A stretch of 64,000 nt of DNA from Mobula hypostoma (taxonomy: Eukaryota). The position numbers and the translations under genes are program-made. The stretch covers positions 24,988,001 to 25,052,000 of the forward strand of contig NC_086097.1 of NCBI RefSeq assembly GCF_963921235.1, given 5' to 3'. The notes beneath the pieces were generated by a model. The model saw only the letters and a program-made list of their open reading frames with translations. It searched no databases and was not told the DNA's origin. This document shows positions 1-58,910 of the stretch, in pieces. Numbering within the stretch: position 1 is the first letter of the stretch; each line of letters opens with the position of its first letter.

Positions 1-870
1 TTGATGCAGACCTCCTGTTCCACTTCAACTGTGCCAATGAGTATGTTACTGTTGCCCTCACTCTGTTCCACAGCATGCATTTTCCTTGCGTGCTCCTTCG
101 ATTTGCACATCTTTGCAAAGTGATTTCTTTTCTGGCATAACTTGCATGTCTGACCAAAGGCTGGACATTTTCTGTATCCATGTTTATAACCACATCTGTT
201 GCAGTTAATTTCCTTTAGATCATTCTGTGGAGCTGGCTTTGTCCTACTCTTGCCAGTTTTCACAGTTACTTCTATTTTCGATTTCGTCTCCCCCCCAGCG
301 GGTTTCACAGTTTTTATTTTGTGCACTTCAATCTCTTCATTGAGCACTTTAATCTGACTTGACGTGATCTCGCTGGCACGGCAAACATCAATTCCCTTTT
401 CTAATGTAAGATCCGCCTCTCTCAATAGCCTGCCTCTCACTTGATCATCCTGTATGCCGCATACAATCCTGTCACGTATTAAAGAGTCATGCAGTTGTCC
501 GAACTCACAGTTTTTTGCCTTGTTTTTCAAATCTGTTACATAGGCGTCTATGGTCTCCATTGGTCCTTGAGCTCTCGTGAAAAACCTGTGTCGGATGTAC
601 GCAGTAATCTTGAAACTTTTTCTTCAACACTTCGATTTTATCTTGCTCATCATCTTGGAAGACAAACATGTTGCAAATCTTTATTGCCTCTTCCCCCGCC
701 ATATGCAGAAACGTAGCACGTTGCACTTTCTCCGTCTTTTCAGCTACGCTGCTAGCGGTGCAAAACAGCTCAAACTTCTAGATCCATATTTTCCAGTTCT
801 CAGCAAGATTACCTTGTAGGCTTAAACTTGACTGTGGCTGTAACTGTGACATCTTTTACATGTCTTCTCT
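1..870 (-). mobile_element. Gypsy (Mag-like) LTR retrotransposon A, gag region, running off the window edge
   Basis: The minus strand at about 100-210 translates to INCNRCGYKHGYRKCPAFGQTCKLCQKRNHFAKMCK (two CCHC knuckles). ORF 505-726 is gag-like. The frame is disrupted. Confidence 0.85.
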
Positions 871-889
871 TCCTTTTTTTTCACGATTT

Positions 890-901
890 CTTCTGACATC
901 A
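890..901 (-). other. Primer-binding site of Gypsy A (tRNA-Leu-like)
   Basis: TGATGTCAGAAG sits directly after the LTR's terminal CA on the minus strand, one mismatch from TGGTGTCAGAAG (complement of a tRNA-Leu 3' end). Confidence 0.7.
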
Positions 902-1035
902 TGTAATATTGATGTGACTCGGATACCACTGCAGATTGAACAACCACGTTTATTCACCAGACTTCCACTTTTATTTCTCCACGTCCTGACGTCATACGCA
1001 CTCTGACGCTACGAATACTCACACAATACATTACA
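902..1035 (-). repeat. Short 5' LTR of Gypsy A (134 bp)
   Basis: TGTAAT...ATTACA inverted ends, adjacent PBS and an internal minus-strand AATAAA. It interrupts the pol of Gypsy B. Confidence 0.75.
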
Positions 1036-2737
1036 GAAGGCAAGTTCATCCCAGCACTGGTTAAAATGGGGGTACTGGAAACTCTGCTGTACATTCCAGC
1101 TATTTTGGGTTGCTATGTAGACCTGAAACAGTGTGGGATCTTTTCTGGTTTCCCTGTAGATCATCTCTGCCATAATAGGGAGACTTTCAATTTGCATTAG
1201 AGAGAATATATCAAGAGAAGTGTCCTATTTTGTAAATTTTTCAGGTATTTCCTTTCCCAGGGGTAAATGGGACAATCCATCAGTTTTTCCATGATTAGTC
1301 ATCCTGTTGAATTTGATCTTGTAATTGTGTCCTCCATGAAACACAGCCCATCACTGCTGTTAATGGAACACTTCTGTGGATCAAAAATGGACACTCAATG
1401 TTTGATGGTCAGCAATGAGAGCAAACTCTTTCCCATACAGGTACTGATTGAAGTGTTTTACACCCCAAACGAGGTTCAAGACCTCTCTGTCAATAAGAGA
1501 GTAATTTTTCTCTGCAGGGGTAAGGGAATGTGATACAGATGATATGGGGCGTTCACTTCCAACCTGTTGTAGCCTGTTATAGTAATTGACAAATCCTAAA
1601 GAAGACTCTGACATGTTCTTTGGCCTTGGGGCGTCCACCACTGCCTGAATTCTCCCAGCACACTTGTGTAAATCTTGTGTGTCAATGGTGTGATCACAGC
1701 AAATGATGCTTGGTTGAAAGAATTCACTCTTCTTGCATTGTGCTCTGAGCCCATAATCTTCTAATCTTATTGAGACTTTGGAGAAGTTCCTTGTTATCCT
1801 TACTGTTAACAATAATGTTGTCTCGATAACACACTGAGTGCCTGGACAGCCTTCTGATACCTGGTCCATACAGATTCTGCCAGAGTGTGGGTGCAGACAC
1901 TACTCCAAAAATAAGCCTATTATTGTGATAAAGCTCTTTCTGAGTGTTTATGGTGAGAAACATTCCGGACTCTTCTTCCATCTCTATCAGCTTCAGCTAA
2001 ATCCACTTTGCTGAAGTGTTTCCGTCCATAGAGGTTTGCAAAGATATCCTCTATTCCAGGCAAAGGGAAGAGATCTACTTTCAGTACTGGATTGATAGTG
2101 ATTTTAAAATTATCAGAAATCCCGACAGAAACATCCTTCTTGGCTATTGGGACCACTGCTGTTGCCCATGGGCTCTACTTAACCTTGGAAAGCATTCCTT
2201 TGACTTCCATATGATCTAGCTCACTGGCTACTTTATCACAGGCGGTGTAAGGAACCAGACTGGTTTTGTAAAACTTTGGTGTGAAATTCTCATTTAACAG
2301 TTTTACCCTTGATGTGTTTGAGTTTTCCGATCTCATCCTTAAATACTGCTGTGGCATCATCCAGCACCTTTCTTAATTCACTTTCCATTGACTCTGTTGC
2401 AGGGGATGTGGCATGCAAACAGTGGATGGATCTCCAGTCAAGTTGTAGTTGTCTCAGCCAATCACAGCCCCACATTGCTGCCCCTCCTGTTTTTCCCATA
2501 TGAGTCCAATGTGGCTTGTTGGTTGTTGAATCTCACTGTTAAAACTGTCATTCCCACAGGAGTTACCTTTTCTCCAGTATAAGTTCTTAGTTGGATATCC
2601 ACAGGCTTCAGTTCAATATCTTTGAAATGCTGTTCAAACTCATTTTGTGGAATGGCTGAAACAGCTGAGCCAGTGTCCAATAACATTTCAATTAATTTGT
2701 CGTTCACTTCTGGTATAAGTCATATTACTTGTCTCTT

Positions 2738-2896
2738 TAAAAACGCAAACAACAGGAATTCTGCAGATGCTGGAAATTCAAGCAACACACATCAAAGTTG
2801 CTGGTGAACGCAGCAGACCAGGCAGCATCTCTAGACTGCACCTCTTCCCAGAGATGCTGCCTGGTCTGCTGCGTTCACCAGCAACTTTGATGTGTG
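2738..2896. mobile_element. Penelope-derived fold-back insertion
   Basis: Near-perfect inverted repeat (CACACATCAAAGTTGCTGGTGAACGCAGCAG... and its reverse complement) with a 13-bp direct repeat TTACTTGTCTCTT at 2725-2737 and 2897-2909. Confidence 0.75.
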
Positions 2897-4077
2897 TTAC
2901 TTGTCTCTTGTTAGATTTAACATTGTAAACTTCAAGGCTCCCAGTCCAGTGTCACTTTCATCATTATCAGATTTTTCATCAACAGCATGTAGATTAGTGC
3001 TCTCCTTGAAACTGCAGCTTTTGTTTTTATCTTTTTTCTTCCCTGTGCAATCCATTTATTTTTGTCTGCCTGGACATACTCTTTGTACATGCCCTACTTT
3101 GCTGCTTTTTCTGTAAGTTTCGCCTTTAAACCTGCATGTATGTGACAGTAACACAATTTGTTCAGCCAGGCAGATTTCTGTTCAGACGTTGTAATTTTGT
3201 TCACGCTCACTTCATTCCTAACTGCAGTTCATTTGTGTCTCTCACTGCTGTTTCCATTGATACAGCAATTTCAACTGTTCTGTTAAATGTGAATTATGCT
3301 ACCATTAGGAGCCATTTTTGAATACTTTGTTATAAGATCCACAAACTAAATAATCATTCAGTGCATCCTCAAGCCCATCACAGAACTAACAACACTCAGA
3401 CAATTTCTTCATGGAGTCCCCTTCCTTGTGATTCTGCTTATGAAACCAAAAGTGTTCTGCAATCAACAATGCTTTTGGTTCTAAATGTTCCTGTATTACA
3501 TTCCTGATATCAACAAAGCTCATTTGGGCTGATTTGTTTGGAACAGTTAAACTGCAAAGCAAACAGTGTGCTTTTCAAGCCTATTAAACTTCCTAACATT
3601 GGTACTCACTTTTCATTGGCCATTTCATTTGCTTCATGATACTGCTCAGTTCATTCAGGATACACCTTCCTGTTAACTGTTGTGTAACTGAATGCATATG
3701 TAGCCAGCCAGTTTGGCTTTTATTTATTTATTATTATCATTACCCAGTACCCACTGTTTATGAACCTGGGAATTTTGTCCATTTTCTTCCTTTTTTTAAC
3801 TCGAATGTTTCCCCTTCTGAAGAAAAACGTACTGTGTTTCAACAGGCAGATAGTCATCTTAGGTTCATTTTAAAACTTCCTTGTCACCTCCATTATGTCT
3901 TGTAACTCCAGAAACTAATTAAAAGAAAAATATGGGAGCCTGGGATACTTGGGTACCTAGTTTTCTTTTGGTGATGCACTCACATATGATGTGGTGCATA
4001 ATGATGTATACTCTTCACGCAATCCGCACATACAATGAATGACATAAGCAAACAGAGAATGCTTATCAAGCAATATA

Positions 4078-4384
4078 TATAGGCATCCGTTAGTCTCATG
4101 AGACCATAGATCTGCGCCTTGGAAAGTTTCCAGGGCGCAGGCCTGGGCAAGGTTGTATGGAAGATCAGTAGTTGCCCATGCTGCAAGTCTCCCCTCTCCA
4201 TGCCACTGATTTTGTCCAAGGGAAGAGAATTAGGACCCATACAGCTTGGCACCGGTGTTGTCGCAGAGCAATGTGTGGTTAAGTGCCTTGCTCAAGGACA
4301 CACATGCTTCCTCAGCCAAGGCTCCAACTAGCGACCTTCAGATCACTAGACGAATGCCTTAACCACCTGGCCACGCGCCAACAC
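4078..4384 (-). mobile_element. tRNA-derived SINE
   Basis: Minus-strand head with A-box TGGCCAGGTGG and B-box-like GTTGGAGCC. 13-bp TSD ATCAAGCAATATA (4065-4077, 4385-4397). The 3' part recurs at about 60180-60226. Confidence 0.75.
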
Positions 4385-5631
4385 ATCAAGCAATATAATT
4401 ACAATATTACTGAAATATGTCACGACCTGCGCCGGCAACATCGGAACGCAAGTGCGGAGGAAAGACAGACTCTGATGTAGAGACAGTGACCAGAGTTTAT
4501 TCATAATAATTCTAACAGTACATCGGTGGCTCAGCCAAGCAACACTGCGAGACGTAACATTCTCAAAACTAGGACCACCCAATTAGTGCTAATCGGGTGT
4601 CCGCTTAGATAATACATGTAACACAGGATCTCCGAGCCTATCAAAATAAACTGAGCAAGTATAAGCAGATAGCAACAGGAGACCACACTACAAAGAACAA
4701 GTTGCTCGAGAGGCAACACAAGGAACTCTAAACAATTAACGACTTTCGTTAAAACAACAATTTATCAATTCAGGTGCTCTAAAATGCTTGGAGCCCAGCG
4801 CTCTCTGGTTCCCCACAGAACTCATTGCAACCACAGTCAAGTCCTCCCTGTGACCAGGTATGTCTACCTCTGAGTGCTCCAGCTACCTCCCACGTCCCAA
4901 AGATGTTGCCACTATGAACTATCCCTCATTCATAAGTGAGTGGGGACAATCTGGGGAAAGTTGATGAGAAGGCCTTTTCTTTTCAGTCCTGATGAAGGTT
5001 CTTGGCCTGAAACATTGGCCTTTTATTCCCCTCCATAGATGCTACCTGACCTGCTGTGTTGCTCCATCGTTTTGTGTTTAGGTTTAGGTTTCTGGTATCT
5101 GCAGGATCTCTTGTGTTTATGATTGTTTGTACAGACAGGTGTAAGACTAGGAATGGGAATGGAGAAAGGGAGGAGGAGGATAAGGAATGGGCATGAAAGA
5201 GAGCTCATCCAACCCTTGCCAATGATATCGTACCAGTTTTTTTTAGGTTTAAAGGAGCCAATGTTTGCAGATTTTAAAAAGATTTGAACCAGGAAATTAT
5301 CAAGAATACTTGCAACACTGTATCTCAGATGTGATGTCATTCCACACAGAAAGAACCATGTGATTGTGTTGGAGGGAATATAGAGGAAGTTCACTGAGAT
5401 ATTGCCTGGATTGGAGGGTATTACCATAAGATATAGGAGCAGAATTAAGCTATATGGGCCATCGAGTCTGCTCCACCATTTCAGCAAGGCTAATTTATTA
5501 ATCCCTGTCAACCCCATTTCCTTGCCTTCTCTCCATGCTCTAATTATTATCTATCAACCTTCACTTTAAATATACCCAATGACTTGGCCTCCACAGTCAC
5601 TGTGCAATGAATTCCACAGATTCACCTAAGG

Positions 5632-14579: not shown

Positions 14580-16385
14580 TGTACGGAGTCTCTTTTTTTT
14601 GTATGTTAAATTTAAAATGGCTTCTTTGTTATGTTAAATACTGAGAAAGTCTCTAGCCAGACATTTGCTTGGGTTAGTACAGACAGCAGGGTGCTATTAG
14701 CCAATGGGTGTTCGGGTATCATTTTGTTTTCAGATGATAATGCTGTCTCATATGACTGGGGACAGGGTTTTTGGGGGGAGTCGGAGGAGAGACAGGGAGG
14801 TCGGCGGACGGGGTTTTTGACGGGGAGTCGGAGGAGAGACGGGGAGGACGGTGGACGGGTTTTTGGGGGGAGTTGGAGGATAGACGGGGAGGACGGTGGA
14901 CGGGGCTTTTGGCGGGGAGTCGGAGGAGAAACGGGGAAGACGGTGGATGGGGTTTTTGGGGGGGAGTCGGAGAAGAGACGGGGAGGACGGCGGACGGGGT
15001 TTTTGGGGGGGAGTCGGAGGAGAGACGAGGAGGACGGTGGACAGGGTTTTTGGTGGGGAGTCGGAGGAGAGACGGGGAGGACGGTGGATGGGGTTTCTGG
15101 GGGTGAGTTGGAGGAGAGACGGGGAGGACGGCGGACGGGGTTTTTGGGGGGGAGTCGGAGGAGAGACGAGGAGGACGGTGGACAGGGTTTTTGGCGGGGA
15201 GTCGGAGGAGAGACGGGGAGGACGGTGGATGGGGTTTTGGGGGGGAGTCGGAGGAGAGACGGGAAGGACGGCGGACGGGGTTTTTGGGGGGAGTTGGAGG
15301 AGAGACAGGGAGGATGGCAGACGGGGTTTTTGGGGGGGAGTCGGAGGAGAGACAGGGAGTCGGAGGAGAGACGAGGAGGACAGTGGACGGGGTTTTGGGG
15401 GGAGTCGGAGGAGAGACGGAGAGGACAGTGGATGGGGTTTTTGACGGGGAGTCGGAGGAGAGACGGAGAGGACAGTGGATGGGGTTTTTGACGGGGAGTC
15501 GGAGGAGAAACGGGGAGTCAGAGGAGAGACGAGGAGGACGGTGGACAGGGTTTTGGGGGGAGTTGGAGGAGAGACAGAGAGGACGGTGGATGGGGTTTTG
15601 GGGGGAGTCGGAGTGGAGACTGGGAGTCGGAGGAGAGACAAGGAGTCGGGGGAGAGACGGGGAGACGGAGGAGAGACGGGGAGTCGGAGGAGAGACGGGG
15701 AGACGGAGGAGAGACGGGGAGTCAGTGGAGAGACGGGGAGTCGGAGGAGAGACGGGGAGTCGGGGGAGAGACGGGGAGACGGAGGAGAGACGGGGAGTCG
15801 GAGGAGAGACGGGGAGACGGAGGAGAGACGGGGAGTCAGTGGAGAGACGGGGAGTCGGAGGAGAGACGGGGAGTCGGGGGAGAGACGGGGAGTCGGGGAA
15901 GAGACGGGGAGTCGGAGGAGAGATGGGGAGACGGAGGAGATACGGGGAGTCGGTGGAGAGAGACGGGGAGTCGGTGGAGAGAGACGGGGAGTCGGTGGAG
16001 GGACGGGGAGGACGGCGGATGTGCGGAAAGGCTCCGGTTGATCACTTCAGGTGGTCCCGAGCTGTGAGTTGACAGGATCCAGGTGGTCGTCAGGAATCGA
16101 TTGGGCTCCAACGGTTGCACACGAAGAACTTGGACTTTGATAAGTCTGGCGCTTTTTTTTCCCCATTACTTCCTTCTCTGTATCGCACTGATATTAATTT
16201 CATAGACTTAGTAATATCTATAAAGTGTACTTGGTAAAACGTACTGTGTGTGCTGGCTGATGATTGATGCTTGTGATTGATTCAGGTGGCAGTGGTACAG
16301 CAACCAACCCAGCAGGAAGCGTTCAGGCCGGTGCTGGGCGGGATTTCCCCAAGGCATATACGAGCCAATATAGCTGAGTGTTACA
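14580..16385. mobile_element. Solo LTR (about 1.8 kb) inserted in a CR1 fragment
   Basis: TGTAC...TTACA ends with 4-bp TSD TAAG (14576-14579, 16386-16389). Removing it restores the CR1 peptide ERVQIRFMRTLPG. Confidence 0.75.
14758..16015. repeat. G/purine-rich VNTR inside the solo LTR
   Basis: About 45-bp units (GGGGAGTCGGAGGAGAGACGGGGAGGACGGTGGACGGGGTTTTT) give way to about 19-bp units (GGGGAGTCGGAGGAGAGAC). Confidence 0.95.
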
Positions 16386-26133: not shown

Positions 26134-29100
26134 GGCGAATCGGCCTGGACAGACAGGAACAGCAGGGCTCTCACAGCCAACAGTACCATCTAACCGTTTA
26201 AAAAGTTCATCAGTTTGGCGCAGTAAGTGGGTGAGTAGACTTATTTTTCCTGTTTCATTCCTGTAGAATTAGATAGCATGCCTGCAGGGTTAGTGCTTTG
26301 TTCAGGGTGTCAGATGTGGGAATCCTGGGAGACCTCCAGCCTCCCTGATGGCCACATCTGTGCCAGGTGCACCGAGATGCAGCTCCTCAAAGACCGTGTT
26401 AGGGGTCTGGAGCTGCAACTTGATGACCTACTGCTTATCAGGGAAAGTGAAGAGGTGATAGACAGGAGCTACAGGGTGGTAATCATCCCTAGGCTACAGG
26501 GGTCAGATAATTGGGTGACTGTCAGGAGAGGGAAGGAAATGCCCAGATAGTGGAGAGCACACCTGTGGCTGTCCCCCTCAGCAACAAATATCTTGTTCTG
26601 GATGCTGTGGAGGGGGTTGATCTGACAGGGGACGCCCACGGTGACCGGGTCTCTGGCACTGAGCCTGGTGCTGTTGTGCAGGAGGGGAGGAGGGAGAAGA
26701 GGAATGCGGTAGTCATAGGGGATTCCATAGTCAGGGGAACAGACAGGAGATTCTGTGAGCCTGATGGAGATACCTGCATGGTGTGTTGCCTCCCAGATGC
26801 CAGGATACGGGGTGTCTTGGATCAGGTCCAGAATATTCTGAAGGGAGAGGGCGAGCAGCCAGTTGTCTTGGTACATGTTGGTACCAATGACATAGATAGG
26901 ATAAGGGAGGAGGTCCTGAAGAGAGATTTCTGGGAGTTAGGAAGGAAGTTGAGAAGCAGGACCTCCAGGGTAGTATTCTCGGGATTGCTACCTGTGCCAC
27001 GTGCTAGCGAGGGCAAGAATAGTAGGATCAGGTAGATGAATGGTGGCTGAGAGACTGGTGCAGGGGGCAGGGCTTCAGATTCTTGGATAATTGGGATCTC
27101 TTCTGGGGGAAGTATGACCCGTTCAAAATGAACAGGTTACACCTGAACCCGAAGGGGACCAATATCCTGGCGGGAAGGTTTAATAGAGCTGTTAGGAAGG
27201 GTTTAAACTAATTTGGCAGGGGGATGGGAAACGGAATGATGGAGTGGAGGAAGGGGAAAACAGAAATAAATCTAAGATAGTGAGCAGTAAAGATGTCAGG
27301 AAAAACAGGCAGGTGATGGGGCAAATTTGTAGCCATTGGAATGAGTTGCAGTGCAATAAAGTTGCAGTGAAATCAAAGCAAAAAGTACCAAATACTGGTC
27401 TTAAGGTGTTATACTTAAATGCACGCAGCATAAGGAACAAGGTGGATGATCTTTGTCGTACAGCTACAGATTGGCAGGTATGATATTGCGGCCATCACTG
27501 AGACGTGGCTAAAGGATGCATGTCTCTGGGAGCTGAACGTCCAAGGATACACGGTGTATCAGAAGGATAGGAAGGTAGGCACAGGGGGAGTTGTGGCTTC
27601 ATTGGTAAGAAATGATATTAAATCATTAGAAAGAGGTGATATAGGATCGGAAGGTACAGAATCTTTATGGGTTGAGCTAAGAAATAGCAGGGGTAAAAGG
27701 ACCCTAACGGCAGTTATATACAGGCCTCCAAACAGCTGCAGTAATGTAGACTACAAATTACAACAGGGAATAGAAAAGGCTTGTCAGAAGGGCAGTGTTA
27801 TGATAATTGTGGGGGATTTTAACATGCGAGTGGATTGGGAAAATTAGGTTGGCACTAGATCTCAAGAGAGAGAATTTGTAGAATGTCCGCGAGATGGCTT
27901 TTTAGAACAGCTTGTTGTTGAGCCCACTAGGGGATTGGCTGTACTGGATTGGATATTGTGTAATGAACCGGAGGTGATTAGAGAGATTGAGGTGAAGGAA
28001 CCCTTAGGAGGCAGTGATCATAACATGATTGAGTTCACTGTGAAATTAGAAAAAGAGAAGCCGAAATCTGATGTGTCAGTATTTCAGTGGAGTAAAGAAA
28101 ATTACAGTGGCATGAGAGAGGAACTGACCAAAGTTGACTGGAAAGGGACATTGGCGGGAAGGATGGCAGAGCAGCAGTGGCTGGAGTTTATGCCAGAAGT
28201 GAGGAAGGTGCAAGACAGGTATATTCCAAAAAAGAAGAAATTTTCAAATGGAAAAAGGATGCAACTGTGGCTGACAAGAGAAGTCAAAGCCAAAGTTAAA
28301 GCAAAGGAGAGGGCATACAAGGAAGCAAAAATTAGTGGGAAGACAGAGGATTGGGAAGTTTTTAAAAGCTTACAAAAGGAAACTAAGAAGGTCATTAAGA
28401 GGGAAAATATAAACTATGAAAGGAAGCTAGCAAATAATATCAAAGAGGATACTAAAATCTTTTTCAAGTATATAAAGAGTAAAAGACAGGTGAGAGTAGA
28501 TATAGGACCGATAGAAAATGATGCTGGAGAAATTGTAATGGGAGATAAGGAGATGACAGAGGAACTGAAGGAGTATTTTGCAACAATCTTCACTGAGGAA
28601 GACATCAGCAGTATACCGGACACTCAAGGGTGACAGGGAAGAGAAGTGTGTGCAGTCACAATTACGACAGAGAAAGTACTCAGGAAGCTGAATAGTCTAA
28701 AGGTAGATAAATCTCCCCGACCAGATGGAATGCACCCTCGTGTTCTGAAGGAAGTAGCTGTGGAGATTGTGGAGACATTAGCGATGATCTTTCAAAAGTT
28801 GATAGATTCTGATATGGTTTTGGAGGACTGGAAAATTGCAAATGTCACTCCGCTATTTAAGAAGGGGGCAAGGAAGCAAAAAGGAAATTATAGACCTGTT
28901 AGCTTGACATCGATGGTTGGGAAGTTGTTGGAGTCGATTGTCAAGGATGAGGTTACAGAGTACCTGGAGGCATATGACAAGATAGGCAGAACTCAGCATG
29001 GATTCCTTAAAGGAAAATCCTGCATGACAAACCTGTTACAATTTTTTGAGGAAATTACCAGTAGGCTAGACAAGGGAGATGCAGTGGATGTTGTATATTT

Positions 29101-30276
29101 GGATTTTCAGAAGGCCTTTGACAAGGTGCCACACATGAGGCTACTTAACAAGATAAGAGCCCATGTAATTATGGGAAAGTTACATACGTGGATAGAGCGT
29201 TGGCTGATTGGCAGGAAACGGAGAGTGGGAATAAAGGGATCCTAGTCTGGTTGGCTGCTGGTTACCAGTGGTGTTGGGGCAGTTTCTTTTTACATTGTAC
29301 ATCAACGATTTGGATTATGGAATAGATGGCTTTGTGGCTAAGTTTGCTGACGATACGAAGATAGGTGGAGAGGCTGGAGGTGCTGAGGAAACAGAGAGTC
29401 TGCAGAGAGACTTGGATAGATTGGAAGAATGGGCAAAGAAGTGGCAAATGAAATACAATGTTGGAAAGTGTATGGTTATGCACTTTGGCAGAAGAAATAA
29501 ACGGGCAGACTATTATCTAAATGGGGAGAGAATTCAAAGTTCTGAGATGCAACGGGACTTGGGAGTCCTCGTACAGGATACCCTTAAGATTAACCTCCAG
29601 GTTGAGTCGGTGGTGAAGAAGGCGAATGCAATGTTGGCATTCATTTCTAGAGGAATAGAGTATAGGAGCAGGGATGTGATGTTGAGGTTCTATAAGGTGC
29701 TGGTGAGACCTCACTTGGAGTACTGTGGGCAGTTTTGGTCTCTTTATTTAAGAAAGAATGTGCTGACGTTGGAGAGAGTACAGAGAAGATTCACTAGAAT
29801 GATTCTGGGAATGAGAGGGTTAACATATGAGGAACGTTTGTCCGCTCTTGGACTGTATTCCTTGGAGTTTAGAAGAATGAGGGGATACCTCATAGAAACA
29901 TTTCGAATGTTGAAAGGCATGGACAGAGTGGATGTGGCAAAGTTGTTTCCCATGATAGGGGAGTGTAGTACGAGAGGGCATGAGTTAAGGATTGAAGGAC
30001 GCCCATTCAGAACAGAGATGTGAAGACATTTTTTTAGTCAGAGGGTGGTGAATCTATGGAATTTGTTGCCACGGGCAGCAGTGGAGGGCAAGTCACTGGG
30101 TGTATTTAAGGCAGAGATTGATAGGTATCTGAGTAGCCAGGGCATCAAAGGTTATGGTGAGAAGGCGGGTGAGTGGGACTAAATGGGAGAATGGATCAGC
30201 TCATGATAAAATGGCGGTGCAGACTCAATGGGCTGAATGACCGACTTCTACTCCTTTGTCTTATGGTCTTATGGTC
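26134..30276 (+). mobile_element. Near full-length CR1 LINE (ORF1 zinc finger/SGNH esterase; ORF2 APE endonuclease-RT) with several stops and frameshifts
   Basis: ORF1 CSGC..CARC, VVIGDSIVRG, VHVGTNDI. ORF2 YLNARSIRNK, AITETWL, VGDFN, SDHN, YRPVSL, LDFQKAFDKVPH, FADDTK. 3' (TCTTATGG)n tail; possible TSD TAAAT. Confidence 0.95.
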
Positions 30277-31389
30277 TAAATATTTTACCTTTAACCTGTG
30301 ATGTCTAGTTTAAGTCTCACCCAACCTCAATGGGAAGAGCCTGTTCACATTTTTCCCATCAATAATCTTCATAATTTTGTATACCTCTGTCAAATCGCCC
30401 CTCATTCTCCTTTGCTCCAGGGAGAAAATATATCTTATTCTGAAATAAGTTCATTTTTTTTAAATAAAAAAATAAAAGGACTGCAATCCAGCTACATGGG
30501 ACTCTCACCAAAGCACTGACTGCCTCTTCACTCTTCGTCCTTCAGTCATTGATTTTTTTGTTCACGTTTGGAACCAACAGTAAGCCAGATTAACCAATCC
30601 TTCCTAATAACAAACTCCTGGAAAGAGTTTAGCAGGTTGAGCAGTAAATGTGTGCGGGGATGGAGGGAGGCGCAGAAAGGAAATTTGGGTCAGGACCCTT
30701 CATCAGGACTCAGTATTGCACAACCCACTGAGTGCCTTGAGCAGAATCAGGTTTATTATCACTGATTTTATGTTGTGAAACTTGTTGTTTTGTGGCAGCA
30801 GTAGAGTGCAATACACAAGAAACACGTATTACCTTAGAATATAAATAAGTAATGCAAATATGAGAAAATAGTGAGGTAATGTTCATTTTCTTGCAGACCA
30901 TTCATAAATTTGATGGTGGAGGAAAAGAAGATGATCCTCAAACATTGAGTGAGTGCCTTCAGTTACACTGGTGCAATTATGCACTGCCATCATAGACAGC
31001 ATCCTCACATCAGCCATTACTGTCTGGTTTGGTGCAGCATTCTCTCACAATATACGAAAACTAGAGCAAACAGGTCAGCAGAAAAGGTCACTGGTTGTGG
31101 TCTACCATCGCTGAGGAGTTGTCCATGTCCGGGACGAAGAAGCAGGCAGGAAAAGTCATTTGCAGACACAACCCACCCCGCAAACTGCCTTTTCCAAAAT
31201 CTCCCTTCTGCAAAGCACTATTGGCCTACTAAAACAAAAACAAATTATGCCATCCAAAGTTTCTTCCCACAGAAAGTTAATCTGATCAGCCATTCTATTT
31301 AGCTCCAACAAATCCCCTCTATCTATTATCTGAGTCATTGCACTGTAAATACTTTAAATTACTTTTAAATGCATTATATTTATTATGTA

Positions 31390-48335: not shown

Positions 48336-51300
48336 ATCAAGATTCAAGATTATTTAATACGATTTCCACTATACAGCTGTAGAGGAGAACAAAATAATTG
48401 TTACTCTGGATCTGATGCAGTACAAAAAAATTCAATAAGATAAAGAAAACAGTAATTAAAAAACACAATAAATATACTGAAAATACATAAGATAGCTCAT
48501 ATACATTGATTGATTGATTGTACATCCACAAAGTGATGCTAGGCACGAGAGTCTTTGTACATCCTTGGGTGTGTTGGCTGTTAACGCAAATGATGCATTC
48601 CACTGCATGGTTCAATGTACCTGTGACAAATAAATCAGAATCTGAATCTGCATTTAACTTTCAAAGGAATTCACAAAAGAGTTGCTCAGTGATATGACAG
48701 CAAAGTTGATAGTCAGCTTGGGACAAATTAAGTTGCACTTCTATACATTGTTAACCAGCTGGCCTGCCTCGATGCAAGCTTCATTAGTAAAGCAAGGAAC
48801 AGCCTGCCTTCTGAATGCACCTTAATTTTGTACATTAATTATTTCCTGAAATATAATTATTATTCAGTTTGCATTTCACAGAGAGCCTGAATTTCCACTT
48901 ATCTGTGAAGTACTCTTGATAGTCTAAGATGCAAATTTACAGGCTAAATAAAAGGTGAAATAATTCGTATTTGCACTCTAAGCGGGGAGTAATTTATTAG
49001 TACAAGCACCGGCTTATTTCATCTTAAAAGATTTACAATTTTGTCTAGCAAGTTTTACTGAATCCATATTATATCAATAGGCAGATGAAATACTGTATAA
49101 TGCAGACAAGGGTGAGGTGTTGCACTTTGGGAGGACAAAGCAGGGTAGGATTTACACAGTAAATGGTAGGGTTCCAAGGATTGTGGTAGAATAGAGAGAT
49201 CTGGGAAAACAGATCCATAATTCATTAAAAAAGGTAGATAGGGTCATCAACAGAACATGTCTGGTCACCTACCTACAGGAAGGAAAGTTATCCATAAGAT
49301 TGAAAGAGTGCAAAGGAAATTTCCAAGGATGTTACCAGGAATTAGTAGTAGTAGTAGTCATACTTTATTGATCCCGGGGGAAATTGGTTAAATTGGGAAA
49401 TTGAAGACCTGGAGTAGGCAATTGAATAGGTTCAGACTTTTATTTCCTGGAACCTGGGAGAATAAGGGGAGATTTGATAGAGGTATATGAAATTATGAGG
49501 GTGTAGATAAGGTAAATTCAAGAAGTCTTTTTCCAGTGAGGTTGGGTGGAACTAGAAATGGATTTCATGGGTTAAGGGGTGAGGGTGAAATATTTAAGGA
49601 GATCCTGAGGGGAAATTTCTTCATTCAGAGGGTGGGGTGAATGTGAGATGAGCTGCCAGAGGAAGTGGTGGATGTGGGTTCGGTTGTAACATTGAAGAGA
49701 AGTTTGGAAATGTGGAGGGATGTGGTCCAGGTCAGACTAATGGGACTAGGCAGAATGATATTTTGGCATGGCTTAGATGGGCCAAAGGGCCTGTTTCTGT
49801 GCTGTAGTGCTCAATGATTCTATGACTCCAGGTTCCATTGTATTGCTTATTACATATACCTGTATTTCAATTTAGTTATTTATTTTCAATTCCCTTTCAC
49901 AAGCTTTAATTTCTTGTATTAGGTCTTTAAATCTCTGTAACCCTTATTTGATTTATAGCTTCAAGTTGTTGTTTGGGGGGACGCTTTAAAGATGTCAGTA
50001 GATGGTGCAAAGGAGCAAAAAGAGAGGTAAGTCACACCTGCCCTCTTCCCCTTGCCTTTCACTGATTTTAATCACATTTCCTAGGGTAACACTTCAGTGC
50101 AAAGTATGAGGAATTGGTACAGTGTCAGGAGCGCCAACTTCTGGATGTAGACTCAGCAAGTAAGACTTGGCCCCAGAAATTGCCAGGCAAGATCAGGAAG
50201 AAGTTGAGGAACCTACACCAGTCCTCAACAGGGGATTAGCAGTGAGCATTTTCAAGTTCCTGGGTATCAACATCTCCGAAGATCTATCCAAGGCCCAACA
50301 TATTAATGCAAATACTAAGAAGGTATGACAGAGGCTATATTTCATTAGAAGCTTGTGGAGACTTGATGTATCACCAAAGACTCTTGCAAATATCTACAGG
50401 CGTACCATGAAGAGCATTCTAACTGGCTGCATCACCATCTGGTACAGAGGGGCCATTGCAAAGGGTCGGAAAACTATAGATGGAAACCACAGACAGAGAT
50501 GCAATTGAGATGCAGTCAGCAACGAAAGTGAGCATGAGCAAAATTGCATTGTCCGCTGTTGTGCCAGGGATGTGGATTACAAATTACATCAGGGAATAGA
50601 AAAGGCATGTCAAAATGGCAATGTCATGATAATCGTTGGGGATTTTAACATGAAAATGGATTGGGAAAACCAGGCCAGGTTTGGACCTCAGGAGAGAGAA
50701 TTTGTAGAATGTCTAAGGCAGCGGTCCCCAACCACCAGGCCGCGGACCGGTACTGGGCCGCAAACCATGTGCTACCGGGCCGCGAGGAAACGATATGAGT
50801 CAGCCGCACCTTTCCTCATTCCCTATCACGCGCACTGTTGAGCTTGAACACACACAAGCTCATTACCCGCGCGTCATCCATGTCAGCACAGGAAGGAGAT
50901 CAACTCCTTGAGCTTGCAAATGACGGCGGGCTGAAAAGTATGTTTGTCATAACATCTCTGCCGGCATTCTGGATCAAAGTCAAAGCTGAATATCCTGAGA
51001 TAGCCACGAAAGCACTGAAAATGTTGCTTCCATTTCCAACATATCTCTGCAATGAATGCAATGAAAACTAAACTGCGGAATAGACTGGACATAAGGAACC
51101 CCCTTCCAGTATCGCTGTCTCCCATCACCCCTCGATAGGACCGTCTTGTTGTAGGAAAACAAGCCCAGGGCTCCCATTGATTCGGCGATATTGGTGTGTT
51201 GCAATGATTTTATATGTTCATACGGTGAAAATATGTGCTGTGTGTTTAATATTGAAACGTTACTTAAAATGTTAACAAACAACAGGAATACTGCAGATAC

Positions 51301-51374
51301 TGGAAAGTCAAGCAACACACATCAAAGTTGCTGGTGAACGCAGCAGGCCAGGCAGCATCTCTAGGAAGAGGTAC

Positions 51375-51410
51375 AGTCGACGTTTCAGGCCGAGACCCTT
51401 CGTCAGGACT
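51375..51410 (-). ncRNA. Minimal type I hammerhead ribozyme motif
   Basis: AGTC CTGACGA AGGGTCTCGGCCT GAAAC GTC GACT: helix I AGTC/GACT, CUGANGA and GAAA cores, palindromic ACGU helix III, GUC cleavage triplet. Confidence 0.75.
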
Positions 51411-51480
51411 AACTGAAGGAAGAGTTAGTAAGAGATTGCCCCTCCCACTTTCAAATTTCTTACTAACTCTTCCTTCAGTT

Positions 51481-51516
51481 AGTCCTGACGAAGGGTCTTG
51501 GCCTGAAACGTCGACT
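51481..51516 (+). ncRNA. Minimal type I hammerhead ribozyme motif
   Basis: AGTC CTGACGA AGGGTCTTGGCCT GAAAC GTC GACT, the mirror copy of 51375-51410. Confidence 0.75.
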
Positions 51517-53500
51517 GTACCTCTTCCTAGAGATGCTGCCTGGCCTGCTGTGTTCACCAGCAACTTTGATGTGTGTTGCTTAAAATGTTAAGATGCTATT
51601 GACTTGTATAACCATATAACAATTACAGCACAGAAACAGGCCATCTCTGCCCTTCTAGTCCATGCCGAACGCTACTCTCACCTAGTCCTACTGACCTGCA
51701 CTCAGCCCATAACCCTCCATTCCTTTCCTGTCCATATACCTATCCAATTTTTCTTTAAATGATAATATCGAACCTGCCTCTACCACTTCTACTGGAAGTT
51801 CATTCAACACTTACTTCAAGCACCCCTGTCTGCCCCTGATAATTGACTTATCGCTATATTCATGCGAGGAAAATATGCGCTGTGTGTTTAATATTAAATT
51901 CGTTAGATAAACCCTTTTAGAAACGAAATTGAGTGTATTAGCCACTTATCACCTATATTCCAGGCGTGATTAACACTCCCCCCCAGGTCCGAACAGAATC
52001 GCCAAAAGCGATTTGTAGAAAAAAATCGACACGTACACTCATGCGCAAGTCACTCATGCGCACTGGTGCCTGTGCAAGGCTCCACGGTCATTGTAGTCTT
52101 TTCGGGGTAAACACAACGTATTTAACTGCTACTCTTGTCCGTTGGCAACCCTACTCCCCCCTCCCCCGGTCTGCCGGTCCGCAAGAATATTGTCAATAAT
52201 AAACCGGTCCGCAATGCAAAAAAGGTTGGGGACCCCTGGTCTAAGGGATGGCTTTTTAGAACACCTTGTTTGAGCCCACTAGGGGATCAGCTGCGCTGGA
52301 TTGGGTGTTGTGTAATGATCCAGAGGTGATAAGAGAGCTTAAGGCTAAGGAACCCTTGGGGAATAGTGATCACAATATGACTGAGTTCAGTTTGAAATTT
52401 GAGAAGGAGAAACTAAATTCCAATGTGTCAGTATTCCAGTGGAATAAAGGAAATGACAATGGCATGAGAGGGAAACTGGCCAAGGTTGACTGGAAAGGGA
52501 CACTAACAGGAAGGACAGCAGAGCAGCAATGGCTGGAGTTTCTGCGAAAAATGAGGGAAGTGCAAGACAGATATATTCCAAATAAGAAGAAATTTTCAAA
52601 TGGAAGAAGGACACTACCGTGGCTGACAAGCGAAGTCAGAACCAAAGTAAAAGCAAAAGAGAGGGCATGCAAGGAAGCCAAAGCTAGTGGGAAGACAGAG
52701 GATTGGGAAACTTTTATAAACTTGCAGAAGGAAACTAAGAAGGTCATTAGGAAGGAAAAGATGAATTATTAAGGAATCTGGTGACTAATATCAAAGAAGA
52801 TATTAAAAGCTTTTTTAAGTATACAAAGGGTAAAAGACAGTTAAGGGTAGATATAGGACCAATAGAAAATGACACTGGAGATATTGTAATGAGGGAAGCA
52901 GATATGGTAGAGGAACTGAATGCTTATTTTGCATCACAATGGAAGACATCTGCAGTATACCGGACATTCAAGAGTGTCAGGGAAGTGAAGTAGTGCAGTG
53001 AAAATTACGACTGAGAAGGTGCTCAGGAAGCTTAATGGTCTGAGGGTGGATTAATCTCCTGGACCTGATGGAATGCACCCCTGGGTTCTGAAGGAAGCAG
53101 CTGGAGAGATTACGGAGGCATTAACAATGATCTTTCAAGAATCAATAGATTCTGGTATTGTACCAGATGACTGGAAAATTGCAAATGTTACTCTGCTATT
53201 TAAGAAGGGTGGGAGGTAGCAGAAAGGAAACTATGGAGCTGTTAGCCTGACATCAGTGGTTGGGAAGTTGTTGGAATCGATTGTTAGGGATGGGATTACG
53301 GAATACCTGGAGGTACAGGACAAGAAAGGACAAAGCCAGCATGGTTTCCTGAAAGGAAAATCCTACCTGACTAACCTTCTGCAATTTTTTGAGGAAATTA
53401 CAAGCAAACTAGACAAAGGAGATGCAGTAAATGTGGTGTACTTGGATTTTCTGAAGGCCTCGGTCAAAGTGCTGCACATGAGGCTGCCTAGCAAGATAAT

Positions 53501-54352
53501 GATGACTCTGCCATAGTTGGATGCATCAGCAAGGGAGATTAGGCTGAGTACAGGGCTATGGTAGAAAACTTTGTCACATGGTGTGAGCAGAATTATCTGC
53601 AGCTTAATGTGAAAAAGACTGAGGAGCTGGTGGTAGACCTGAGGAGAGCTAAGGTACCGGTGACCCCTGTTTCCATCCAGGGGGTCAGTGTGGACATGGT
53701 GGAGAATTACAAATACCTGGGGATATGAATTGACAATAAACTGGACTGGTCAAAGAACACTGAGGCTGTCTACAAGAAGGGTCAGAGCCGTCTCTATTTC
53801 CCGAGGAGACTGAGGTCCTTTAACATCTGCCGGACGATGCTGAGGATGTTCTACAAGTCTGTGGTGGCCAGTGCTATCACGTTTGCTGTTGTGTGCTGGG
53901 GCAGCAGGCTGAGGGTGGCAGACACCAACAGTATCAACAAACTCATTCGTAAGGCCAGTGATGTTGTAGGGATGGAACTGGACTCTCTGACGGTGGTGTC
54001 TGAAAAGAGGATGCTGTCTAAGTTGCAGGCCATCTTGGACAATGTCTCCCATCCACTACATAATGTACTGGTGGACACAGGAGTACATTCAGCCAGAGAC
54101 TCATTCCACCGAGATGCAACACAGAGCGTCATAGGAAGTCATTCCTGCCTGTGGCCATCAAACTTTACAACTCCTCCCTTGGAGGGTCAGACGTCCTGAG
54201 CCAATAGGCTGGTCCTGGATTTATTTCGTAATTTACTGGCATAATTTACATATTACTATTTAACTATTTATGGTTTTATTACTATTTATTATTTATGGTG
54301 CAACTGTAACGAAAACCGATTTCCCCCGGGATAAATAGAGTATGACTATGAC
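53501..54352 (+). mobile_element. Rex1/Babar-type LINE, 5'-truncated at the RT DD motif, nested in CR1
   Basis: DDSAIVGCI...WCEQNYLQLNVKKTEELVVD...YKYLG...SRLYF; (TATGAC)n tail; ATAA flanks both ends. Confidence 0.85.
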
Positions 54353-56133
54353 TATAAGAGCCCATAGAATTACAGGGGAGTTACTAGCATGGGTGGAGCA
54401 TTGGCTGATAGGCAGAAAACAGAGAGTGGGAATAAAGGGATCTTATTCTGGCTGGCTGCCGGTTACCAGTGGAGTTCCACAGGGGGCAGTGTTGGGACTG
54501 CTGATTTTAACAATGTATGTCAATGATCTGGACTATGGGATTAATGGATTTGTGGCTAAATTTGCCGATGATACAAAGATAGGTGGAGGAGCAGGTAGTG
54601 TTGAGGAAACAGGGAGGCTGCAGAGAGACTTAGATAGTTTAGGGGAATGGACAAAGAAGCGACAAATGAAATACAATGTTGGAAAGTGTATGGTCATGCA
54701 CTTTGGTGGAAGAAATAAATGGGCAGACTATTATTTAGATGGGGAGAGAATTCAAAATGCAGAGATGCAAAAGGATTTGAGGGTCCTTGTGCAGGATACC
54801 CTAAAGGTTAACCTCCAGGTTGAGTCAGTGGCAAAGAAGGCGAATGCAATGTTGGCATTCATTTCTAGAGGTATAGAATATAAGAGCAGGGATGTGATGT
54901 TGAGGCTCTATAAGGCACTCGTGAGATCGCACTTGGAGTATTATGTGCAGTTTTGGGCTCCTTATTTTAGAAAGGATATACTGACATTGGAGCGGGTTCA
55001 GAGAAGATTCACGAGAATGATTCCAGGAATGAAAGAGTTACCATATGAGGAACGTCTGGCAGCTCTTGGGCCGTATTCCCTGGAGTTCAGGAGAATGAGG
55101 GGGGGATCTCATAGAAACATTCCAAATATTAAAAACTGAACAGATTAGATATGGCAAAGTTATTTCCCACAGTAGGGGAGTCTAGGACAAGGGGGCACGA
55201 CTTCAGAATTGAAGGACGTCCATTTAGAACAGAGATGCGGAGAAAAAATCTATGGAATTTGTTGCCATGAGTGGCTGTGGAGGCCAAATCACTGGGTGCA
55301 TTTAAGGCCGAGATAGATAGGTTCTCGATCAGGCAGGCCTTCTAAAAGGTATGGGGAGCAGGCAGGGGAGTGGAGATGACTGGAAGAATTGGATCAGTCC
55401 ATGATTGAATGGTGGAGCAGACTCGATGGGCCAAATAGCCTACTTCTGCTCCTATATCTCATGGTCTTATACACCAAAAAAATGCAGATTTAAAGGCAAA
55501 ATTTGCAGAAAATGCAACAAAGTAGGACACATACAAAGAGCATGTCAGGCTTACAATAATGAATAGACTACACAGGGAAGAGAAAACGTTAAAAAGTCAG
55601 GTGGCAGTTTCAAAAACAGCACTAATCTGTTGATGAAAAATCTGATAATGAGGAGAGTGACTAATAATTGTTTAGCCTTGAAAATAAGTATGAAAATTAA
55701 CATTAGACAAGCAGTAGGGCTTATGCTGGAAGTGAACAGTAAATCAATTAAAATGGAATTAAACAGTAATTCTGCTGTTTCAGTCATTCCATGAGTTTGA
55801 ACAGCATTTCAAAGATACCAAACTGAAGCTTGCAAATATCCAAATAAGAATTTATATTGGAGAAGAGATAACTCCTGTGGGAATGACATCTGCATTTGTG
55901 AAATGCAACAAACAATAAGCCACATTGAGCTTGTATGTGGTAAAAACAGATGGACCAATATTATGGGCCCATGACTGGCTGAAACAATTACAACTTAATT
56001 GGACATCCATCCTCGATTTGCATGCCACATCCCCTACAATGAAGCTGAATGAAAGCAAATTTAGAAAGGTACTGGACGATGCCACAACTGTCTCCATGCC
56101 GAACACCATGAACCATTGCCCAACAGAGGACAA

Positions 56134-56790
56134 ACGGCTATTGGTGCCAAAATCTGTGCCTCTGGTTGGAAAGCATATTGGACCAAGGAAGGACCATGCC
56201 GGTCAGAGGAATTGCAAAAATGACAAAAGCTGTGGTCCAACTACAACAGTTTTTGTTGGCAACATACCTTGGAAAATTTCTGATATGTTAATCAGGCGGT
56301 TACAAAATGTGCCTGGAAAAGAGTTCAAAGAGCTTCAGGAAAGTTGCAAGCATTCGGCATTTGTGGGTATAAAGAACCAGAATCTACTCTGCATGCATTA
56401 AGGTTATTGCATGAACTTCAAGTGAAAGACAAAAACGGCTTGCAAAAGTAGATGCAAAGACCAAAATCCAGCTCGATGAATGGAAGGCCAAAAAGAATGG
56501 AGTCAATGAAGATACAAAAACAGAGAATTCATTTGATGATGTTGTGGAAGAGAAAACCAAGAGGAGAGATGAAATTGTAAAGGGAGAAATAGGATTAATA
56601 AGAGAATATTCCAGAGACCTAAATGGACCTTCCTAAGATTGGAGTACACAAATTAGAAAAAGGAAAAGGAGGGAACAGATGGAGAGAAAGAATGTGAACG
56701 AGAAAGAGAAAAGTGCGAAAGAGAGAAGGAAGATGAGAAAGAAAAAGAAAGGGACCAAAGTAGATCCAGTGAGAGAAAAGGAGAAGAAAG
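56134..56790 (+). pseudogene. RBM25: Processed fragment of RNA-binding protein 25 mRNA (RRM and start of the RE/RD region) inside the Gypsy element
   Basis: Across frameshifts: LVPKSVPLVGKHIGPRKDH...CGPTTTVFVGNI..KISDMLIR / WKRVQRASGKLQAFGICGYKEPESTLHALRLLHELQV / KVDAKTKIQLDEWKAKK...KTKRRDEIVKG..LIREYSRDLNGPS. This is collinear with vertebrate RBM25 as I recall it. No introns; has stops and deletions. Confidence 0.9.
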
Positions 56791-57131
56791 GTAGCCAGAG
56801 CTGTCAGAACCACTTCCTGCGGTCTGGGAGTCAATTTCTACAAGCACCGCGGAGGAGGCCCCAGAACCTGGGATTTTTCACAGCCACAAGTCGCACCTGC
56901 CAAGCGGAGTGACCTCCCTTGTTAGGAAAGACATTGTCCAACAAGAGTAAGAAAGCCTCCACAGTGATGAAATCTTTCAGCCTAAATGAAACAAATTAAA
57001 CTTTACTGTGCTGTAGATATCTGTGTATAGTAGTTGTGTTATATAGTATACTGTGTATATAGTTGAGATGCACTCTCTGTTGAGTTGCAGTTTATCGCTA
57101 AGCAGTGAGGAGTCTTGTGTATTTAATATTT

Positions 57132-58186
57132 CAGAGGCTCCACGCAACCACTAAACTCCATAGAGAGCAGGTCCTGGAGCTGCAGTATGCAGACGACTGT
57201 GCTCTTGTGGCCCATACTCCGGAGGATCTTCAGACTGTCCGGGCTGTGGCGGTGAGAGCGTACCACAGGATGGGGCTGACTGTCAATACCACCAAGACAG
57301 AAGTGGTTTGCCAATGGAGTACTAGTGTCCCACCCACTCTACTTGCCTTCACTGTTGGTGATGAAAAGCTGTCAGTAGTGCCATCTTTCAAATATCTGAG
57401 GAGCATTCTCTCTGAGGATAGCGGCATTGACGACGACATCCAGAGCTGCATTAAACAGGCATCAACTGCCATTGGGAGACTTTGGCGTAGAGTCTTCCAG
57501 AACAGGAGCCTTCGTCCCTCCACAAAGGTCACCGTATACCAAGCGGTCTGTGTCATCACCCTCCTTTATCGCTGCGAAGCTTGGGTAACCTACAGCCGTC
57601 ACATCAAGTCCTTGGAGTGCTTCCACATAAGCTGCCTCCAGCACATCCTGGGAATTACCTGGCGTGAGCGGGTGCCTCACACTGAAATATTTGTAAAGAC
57701 CAACTGCAGGCTATTGAGGCCATGATCACCCAGCGTCAGCTGCAGTGGCTGGGGCACACGATAAGGATGCCCCCATGTCGGCTACCCCGCAGAGTGTTAT
57801 ACGGCCAGCTACACCATGGTCAATGCTCAGCTGGAGGGCCGAAGAAGTGCTATAAGGATCAGATGAAGAATGCTTTAAGGAAGTTCAAGATCAGATCCAA
57901 GAACCTGGGGGATGTTGCTGCTGACCGTACTACTTGGCGACAGCTGTGTAGGGACGGGGTTTGTATTCTGGAGATGAAAAGAACAACCAGAAGACAGCAG
58001 AAGAGAGCCAGGAGAAATGCAAACATGGTTGCCGCCACTACCATCACTACCACATATACATGTCCCATCTGCAATAGAGCTTGTGGGTCCAGGATAGGAC
58101 TGTATAGTCATCAAAGATCTCACCGTTAAAGGAGTGGACATCATCATCGGATTTCGATGGACAACCGAAGAGAGAGAAGAGAAGAG
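57132..58186 (+). mobile_element. RTE-clade LINE, 5'-truncated, inserted in the Gypsy LTR
   Basis: LQYADDCAL, GLTVNTTKTEV, LQWLGHTIRM, C-terminal CPICNRACGSRIGLYSHQRSH; (GAAGA)n tail; AATATTT on both flanks. Confidence 0.9.
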
Positions 58187-58910
58187 AATATTTGGGTACT
58201 CTTGTGTATATATTGGTTAATTTAGCATTCTTTTTCATTTAAGTAATTAATTACAGGTTATATATAAAAATACATAAATTACTTACATCATCACGCTACC
58301 ACATGATACATGGGCATCTCACCTGAAGTAAAGACTAAATTACACTCGTACTTCGGACTCTCATGTCTTCCTTTGAATTAATTTAATGTTTTGATGTTAC
58401 AAAACATAACAGTGACCACTTTGCTTTGACAGGCAACAGTGTTGTACAGCTACACTCCCTCCTTCCCGTCCACCTCATCGAATTTGGGTTACTACCAACT
58501 GCACCACTGTGTTGTCCCAAAAACCAACCACCACTGCTAACATATCATAGAAACAAGAGGTTCTGCAGATACCGGGAATCCAGAACAACACGTACAAAAT
58601 GTTTCTAATCCACAGGTGCTGCCTCACTTGCTGACGTACATAAGAACATAAGAAACGGGAGCAGGAGTAGGCCATCTGGCCCATCGAGCCTACTCCGCCA
58701 TTCAATAAGAACATGGCTGATCTGGCCATGGACTCATCTCTACCTACATGCCTTTTCCCCATAACCCTTCGTTCCCCTGTCTGTCCAGGTACCATTTCTG
58801 ATGCAGACTTTGGTGACCATGGTTTTGCATATAGATCTATCCTTCGTTTTTTGGATGACTTCCATTTCTTCAATGTGTAGCCACCTGGCCAGGCTTTCAA
58901 TGTACATAAG

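Follow-up and report, generated by a model that had tools for sequence, protein, structure and literature searches.

How sequence from the mRNA of the splicing factor RBM25 came to lie inside a Gypsy retrotransposon, and whether it multiplied with the element, is the question raised by a locus of Mobula hypostoma. In this study, we examined it in a stretch of 64,000 nucleotides (contig NC_086097.1 of assembly GCF_963921235.1, positions 24,988,001 to 25,052,000, forward strand), here called the window. A sequence-only reading had placed at 55470..57131 an element in which RBM25 sequence stands in for reverse transcriptase (RT), RNase H and integrase, and had read gag knuckle, protease remnant, linker, RBM25 part, pol tail, polypurine-tract (PPT)-like stretch and LTR in this order on one strand. 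All of these parts are present in that order on the + strand of a decayed Ty3/Gypsy element, which is interrupted by two LINE insertions. The range itself was too narrow: the element extends to a gag fragment at 50475-50553 and to the remainder of an LTR at 58187-58411.

The RBM25 part spans 56088..56779 on the + strand, in sense orientation and in place of the RT/RNase H/integrase core. It is intronless, as had been claimed, and its length is 692 nt rather than the earlier estimate of about 650 nt. Over 56081-56684 and in three frames, the DNA matches the shark RBM25 proteins P0069 (67-76% at the amino acid level, E 6e-72) and P0070 (57-69%, E 2e-68 in tblastn), and RE-rich sequence runs on to 56779. 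The nearest RBM25 match is that of the shark Heptranchias perlo at 77%, the remaining 67 of 68 matches lying at or below 61%. The insert comprises a shark-type segment of 16 amino acids, the whole RRM (RRM_1, residues 72-140 of P0070, falls within the matched range), the helix/lysine-rich region and the start of the RE-rich region; the C-terminal half of RBM25 with its PWI region has no match in the insert. Frameshifts near 56290-56302, 56430-56448 and 56635-56657 and a stop at 56634 attest to its damage.

The 16-amino-acid segment occurs in 3 of 123 RBM25 proteins (P0001, P0069 and P0070), all from a shark cluster. It lies before the RRM exons and has a 4-amino-acid alternative at its end, with the captured mRNA corresponding to the shorter (X2) form. 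A retained intron was considered for this segment and set aside: in the window copy the segment does not open like a splice donor, and its end is where 4 amino acids set the two shark isoforms apart.

Closer examination of the insert shows that four intron positions are crossed without introns, at about 56138, 56305, 56350 and 56505; these positions are deduced from other vertebrates, through gene calls that read through introns and a locus termed L001, and not from Mobula's own RBM25 gene. Among 106 proteins with the motif RQLL(A/S), 35 continue in V, which reveals the donor site, and 65 have the spliced form. The acceptor in front of the VLVP exon is evident from P0072-P0074 and P0084, the KLQ/AFG intron site from P0076, P0061 and P0065, and L001 has an AG acceptor and a GT donor around the next exon of 183 nt. 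This exon aligns to 56521-56672 of the window (0/300 shuffles), and the following 84-nt exon gave no alignment in the window copy (159/300 shuffles), having been lost either in this copy alone or family-wide. At the second intron site the window copy has small deletions, and 98 contigs of sequencing run X1 cross it in spliced form. The expected exon-exon joins are thus present, and a match to a single exon is ruled out. At the level of sequence comparison, these data show the insert to be a piece of a spliced host RBM25 mRNA.

L001 is a metagenome contig with two vertebrate RBM25 exons, at 129-311 and 2833-2916, both with AG/GT ends, and probably represents host DNA in the sample. Among the matches listed in the metagenome scan, it was the one RBM25 genomic locus, and no chimera was found.

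To which element the flanks belong can be judged from Gypsy B, a relative of the same family at window 1030-4460 on the minus strand. Gypsy B retains a 5' LTR, a TGG primer site, gag, protease and remnants of RT and RNase H (Pfam RT_RNaseH, E 1e-16), and is cut off near 1030; its 5' LTR is split by a short repeat near 4082-4380. Adjoining it, window 1-960 holds another gag-like stretch on the minus strand, with a CCHC knuckle at 146-105, apparently of a separate LTR family. The window also contains two near-perfect palindromes of one repeat family with 128-nt arms (98%), at 51310-51581 and at 2779-2903, the latter in the gag-protease spacer of Gypsy B; as a guess, we take them to be Penelope-like inverted ends. 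Two tandem arrays, of G-rich 47-nt and 19-nt units, lie side by side at 14671-16037.

At the 5' side of the chimera, the gag fragment at 50475..50553 (+) matches Gypsy B 3185-3262 with 75% identity (79 nt, E 1e-9), and no further Gypsy-like DNA was found upstream of 50475 within the window. It is followed at 50554..55470 (+) by a LINE inserted in gag, outside the chimera proper, of which three pieces are collinear with a LINE at 27744-30272 (80-83%) and which carries Pfam RVT_1 in 54339-55136 (E 1e-9); presumably it is CR1-like. Two insertions are nested in this LINE, namely a LINE-like piece at about 53500-54353 and a DNA transposon at 50719-52238. The transposon has short terminal inverted repeats and an 8-bp target site duplication (TSD) inside the LINE, and we take it to be hAT-like; ends resembling it were seen near 5637, 6389 and 62332.

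Behind the LINE, the 3' remnant of gag at 55471..55704 (+) contains many stops, is 79% identical to Gypsy B over 55482-55661 and harbors a CCHC zinc knuckle at 55504-55545, which is one of two matches in a knuckle scan of the whole window (the other being 146-105 on the minus strand). The protease remnant follows at 55705..56087 (+), together with the protease-RT linker as far as the first residues of RT. This part had been likened to the linker of Gypsy B and indeed shows 77% identity to it (E 1e-79), with the counterpart of 55705-56086 at window 2350-2734 on the minus strand. The protease active-site motif is decayed in the chimera and intact in Gypsy B. Furthermore, 55784-56116 is 42% identical in amino acids to residues 2-114 of polyprotein P0090, whose domains are RT, RNase H and an integrase zinc-binding domain. 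Of the Ty3/Gypsy order, the chimera thus has the knuckle and the protease remnant, and the order RT-RNase H-integrase is seen in the relative P0090.

Gypsy B lacks an RBM25 insert at the equivalent point, and at least 1.3 kb of pol continues there. As RT/RNase H/integrase follow after the same point in Gypsy B and in P0090, the pol core of the chimera was replaced, not interrupted. Downstream of the insert, 56780..57099 (+) is read as the C-terminal tail of pol (integrase) plus the 3' untranslated region. This stretch has no counterpart in Gypsy B and so lies outside that comparison; Pfam gave no family for it, the Atlas a single match at 0.76 that is a lead at most, and the protein databases no match. 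Its assignment as a Gypsy integrase tail is our assumption from a general likeness to such tails, and is based in addition on reads: three contigs of run X22 have letters other than RBM25 before 56780 and then the tail. In run X1, depth over 56780-57099 is about 19-23k throughout, save one dip.

A PPT-like stretch at 57100..57112 (+; 11 of 13 purines) is weak evidence when taken alone and is supported by its position. The 3' LTR starts behind it at 57113..57131 (+), reading TC where TG is usual, and the likeness of these first 19 nt to the LTR start of Gypsy B is not significant by itself (58/500 shuffles reach the score). A 5'-truncated LINE, again outside the chimera proper, lies in the LTR at 57132..58186 (+), flanked by a 7-nt duplication (57125-57131/58187-58193). 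In this LINE, which we take to be RTE-like, Pfam reports RVT_1 at E 3e-6 and zf-C2H2 at E 6e-4, both under the curated cut-offs. The remainder of the 3' LTR at 58187..58411 (+) ends in CA and has no TGG primer site behind it; TGG is found behind the LTR of Gypsy B. Its distal part, 58207-58409, matches the LTR of Gypsy B at 4079-3893 with 62% identity over 204 columns (E 8e-10; 0/500 shuffles). The window, in which the element breaks off at 50475, contains neither a recognizable 5' LTR of the chimera nor a TSD of the element.

Searches of the pieces against general resources added little. Pfam gave no meaningful family for six element pieces (one chance-level AMH_N row), the PDB gave no match for two pieces and weak RRM matches for a third (E 0.12 or worse), and a word-index search with the protease-linker returned 0 of 5 candidates. 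Since both the 5' flank (75-79% to gag and protease) and the LTR match Gypsy B, they belong to one Gypsy family, as had been proposed.

We then located the two junctions. At the 5' side, the alignment to Gypsy B stops at 56086 and that to P0070 begins at 56081 (A-T-T-V-S-M) in the same frame, which places the switch at 56081-56087. Both parents read A-T in the two-codon overlap 56082-56087, allowing a putative microhomology of 6-7 nt, with the likeness at the codon level. The 3' switch lies at about 56780 and is purine-rich on both sides; the RE-rich frame 56657-56791 continues past a stop at 56792 into what we presume to be the frame of the pol tail. Both junctions are displaced from the suggested 56090-56135 and 56790. 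Likewise, a gag-pol/RBM25 fusion frame at 55925-56401 had been described; the fusion exists, runs from stop to stop over 55919-56401, and joins the C-terminal half of the protease and the linker, not gag, to RBM25. This frame leaves that of RBM25 near 56302 and is therefore a remnant, not a gene. No protein spanning the Gypsy-RBM25 fusion was found in the databases, where searches with the fusion frame match RBM25 and Gypsy proteins separately. P0099 was inspected as a junction-spanning fusion and rejected, being an RBM25 gene call that reads through an intron.

In agreement with the first description, the insert has no poly(A), the longest A run within about 60 nt being 5, and no repeat lies flush with both junctions as a TSD. 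The best shared word, a 9-mer at 56063 and 56785, was rejected as a TSD: it belongs to the Gypsy-derived part and does not abut the junctions. Foreign flanks, a TSD or poly(A) of the insert's own and a match to a single genomic exon had been set in advance as the observations that would speak against capture by the element, and none of the three was made.

A different route to an identical-looking end product starts from a processed RBM25 copy that a LINE inserted in a Gypsy element; a single later deletion would have taken away the pol core together with the poly(A), the 3' TSD and two-thirds of the mRNA at its 3' end, before the product was amplified. LINEs are abundant in the window, purine-rich deletions occur and the 84-nt exon is missing. 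Furthermore, a survey links the number of retrocopies to the non-LTR content of genomes and reports 14,081 retrocopies in cartilaginous fishes (bioRxiv 10.64898/2026.06.26.734816). However, this route needs two events, left no trace of poly(A) or TSD, and has to contend with a 5' end that is in frame where the two parents overlap by two codons. Sense orientation, 3' truncation and replacement of an ORF together form the pattern described for LTR-type retrocopies (PMC5131818), and poly(A) and TSD versus LTR flanks are criteria that separate the retrocopy types (PMC5470649). LINE-made processed pseudogenes resemble the RBM25 part in being intronless mRNA copies, but have poly(A), a TSD and the mRNA 3' end, which are absent in the chimera (PMC5470649). 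Also, every LINE-made pseudogene is a separate insertion, whereas the copies of the RBM25 chimera have a common junction. We regard this route as improbable. Judged from such features, double template switching, the cause proposed at the outset, is more probable than LINE insertion plus deletion.

Exchange at the DNA level would be a further possibility, in which an RBM25 retrocopy or cDNA that already existed recombined with a Gypsy copy or its cDNA, or served as template for its repair, and the product was then amplified. Short junction likeness also fits microhomology-mediated repair, and exchanges at the RNA and DNA levels look alike in the present tests. However, such an exchange calls for an unseen donor retrocopy, and no other RBM25-like DNA was found within the window; template switching by reverse transcriptase gives both junctions in one step. 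We consider DNA-level exchange very unlikely. An amplified non-autonomous chimera is the endpoint of capture by template switching and of both of these alternatives alike, and of this endpoint we are highly confident.

To assess amplification, 55440-57140 was mapped at 80% likeness to four of 24 sequencing runs: X1, X5 and X9, which are DNA-type, and X22, presumed to be RNA. Among the DNA-type runs, it matched 20,813 contigs for organism A, 18,162 for organism B and 22,059 for organism C; the presumed RNA run had 963. Of the contigs in each run, 81-85% were less than 95% alike. Among the 32 longest pieces (63,711 more matched), 16 bridged the 5' junction, reaching 31 nt or more into both sides with identities of 79-85%, and these came from all four runs. 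Five X22 pieces bridge this junction; the RNA status of X22 is a guess, and the run may hold DNA. Many diverged copies with a common 5' junction are thus present in three organisms. The proposal of a multi-copy, non-autonomous family holds for this junction and is more tentative for the other: the 3' junction was bridged by 31 nt on each side in 1 of the 32 pieces, which is 98% identical and probably the same locus in organism B, and a second piece has 30 nt on one side. Ten bases before the 3' junction, at 56770, 90, 67 and 90 contigs share one difference from the window copy. This fits a common 3' junction, short of proof, and such a junction may be common to diverged copies.

Median summed depth in the insert was 997-1,736x single-contig depth in X1, X5 and X9, with flanks of the same order, and 2,189-2,484x in the 5' junction bin, which shows no dip. 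Summed depth is not copy number and serves as a rough gauge, read here as hundreds to a few thousand. In X1, the insert peaked at 31,056 and the flanks at 30,823 and 21,584, and in all three DNA runs the peak of the insert was at least as high as that of the flanks. As insert and flank depths peak alike, the insert would appear to be present in most close relatives. Depth dipped in X1 at 56637-56750, to about 1,000-4,000 from about 20,000 on either side. In one X5 contig, with a join from 55535 to 56153, the RBM25 part follows the gag knuckle almost immediately; it represents a shorter deletion derivative of the chimera.

Where the window copy has the LINE in gag, gag continues in other copies (137-226 contigs in X1, X5 and X9); lacking this LINE, these copies are not duplicates of the window locus. 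Transitions predominate among the differences between copies, as expected if decay has been neutral and long-standing. Over 228 nt, one X1 contig agrees with the window copy in every letter, and the window locus is therefore probably present in organism A; X1, from which the window itself may derive, does not count as independent evidence for this locus. That the depth reflects segmental duplication or a Gypsy-independent RBM25 repeat, with a one-off juxtaposition in the window, could draw on the weak sharing of the 3' junction and on depth not being a copy count, and is scarcely credible against 16 diverged pieces from four runs with the same 5' junction, the undiminished depth in the junction bin and other copies free of the window locus's gag LINE.

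Taken together, capture of RBM25 mRNA by template switching, followed by old non-autonomous amplification and the death of the window copy, is in our view the probable history. We infer template switching as the cause, a single founding event, mobilization in trans and the copy number from the patterns described. Spliced RBM25 mRNA would have been packaged along with the RNA of an autonomous Gypsy element. During minus-strand synthesis, reverse transcriptase would have left the element within the integrase tail and continued on the RBM25 mRNA for about 0.7-0.8 kb, from the RE-rich region to a point shortly 5' of the RRM exons, before re-entering the element at the start of RT via the 6-7 nt likeness. 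The product would have kept gag, protease, PPT and LTRs and lost RT, RNase H and the integrase core. Helper enzymes acting in trans would then have spread it to a number of places on the order of 10^3, where neutral decay set in, and the window copy would later have been hit by the two LINE insertions.

A bolder extension of capture by template switching is that the founder encoded one polyprotein, Gag-protease-RBM25(RRM + RE-rich)-integrase tail, whose RNA-binding module aided the stability, export or packaging of the element RNA and let the chimera outnumber its autonomous parent. Hints in this direction are the in-frame 5' junction, the capture of the whole RRM and the insert peak depth, which is at least that of the flanks. 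A further hint is the RE-rich frame entering the presumed tail frame at the 3' junction of the window copy. Codon-phased microhomology and escape from nonsense-mediated decay favor in-frame junctions anyway, and elements without pol often proliferate regardless (PMC5131818). We consider such a founder doubtful. If the cargo did aid the element, a vertebrate retrotransposon would have domesticated the domain of a host splicing factor.

LTR-mediated retrocopies of animals have already been described by Tan et al. in 2016 (PMC5131818). As in the RBM25 chimera, a partial, 3'-truncated mRNA takes the place of part of the internal ORF in an LTR element, poly(A) and TSD are lacking, and non-autonomous copying follows; short likeness at the switch is described there and is putative in the chimera. 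The multi-copy cases described there are small, with two fly retrocopies at more than one site and 18 sites for nine retrocopies, and cartilaginous fish are absent among the species named. In contrast, the signal of the RBM25 chimera is of the order of 10^3, in three organisms, and its copies are 15-20% diverged from the window copy. The maize element Bs1 similarly holds host exons in an LTR element, partly in frame and with switch points common to its copies, but has three donor genes, 1-5 copies and a reported hybrid protein (PMC5131818), compared with one donor, many copies and a dead window copy here.

TR-GAG and GAG/PROT-only elements of plants likewise have gag and protease without RT, RNase H and integrase ("semi-autonomous"), but belong to plant lineages and have no host cargo in the described cases (PMC13570524). 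In the chimera, stops and a LINE disrupt gag, and host mRNA fills the gap; at most, it works like TR-GAG. In plant giga-genomes, transposable elements (TEs) also multiply captured exons, with a possible silencing conflict with the donor gene, but there the average is 16-39 TEs per donor gene and all TE classes take part (PMC13477047). We found no RBM25-carrying element among the papers listed on RBM25, retrotransposons and retrocopies, a search confined largely to open-access literature, and the family may already have an entry in repeat libraries. RBM25 does not occur in the main text of the preprint on retrocopies in 244 genomes (10.64898/2026.06.26.734816). The capture mechanism is known, and its scale seems unusual among the animal cases compared.

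The locus extends LTR-mediated gene capture to cartilaginous fishes, in which a captured set of host exons reached perhaps a thousand copies by way of a non-autonomous element. Element amplification, rather than repeated LINE activity, may inflate the retrocopy counts of sharks and rays. The top retrocopy parents reported for cartilaginous fishes are MIPOL1, SUDS3, SDF2L1, SLU7 and ZNF276 (bioRxiv 10.64898/2026.06.26.734816), and we speculate that further captures amplified by elements may lie behind their retrocopies. If the cargo is neutral, the family is a striking but ordinary dead repeat family. The many copies make it testable whether the cargo was selected for the benefit of the element and whether small RNAs directed against the element also strike an essential splicing gene. 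The family shared between organisms is also a possible clade marker, and it preserves an old splice form of RBM25.
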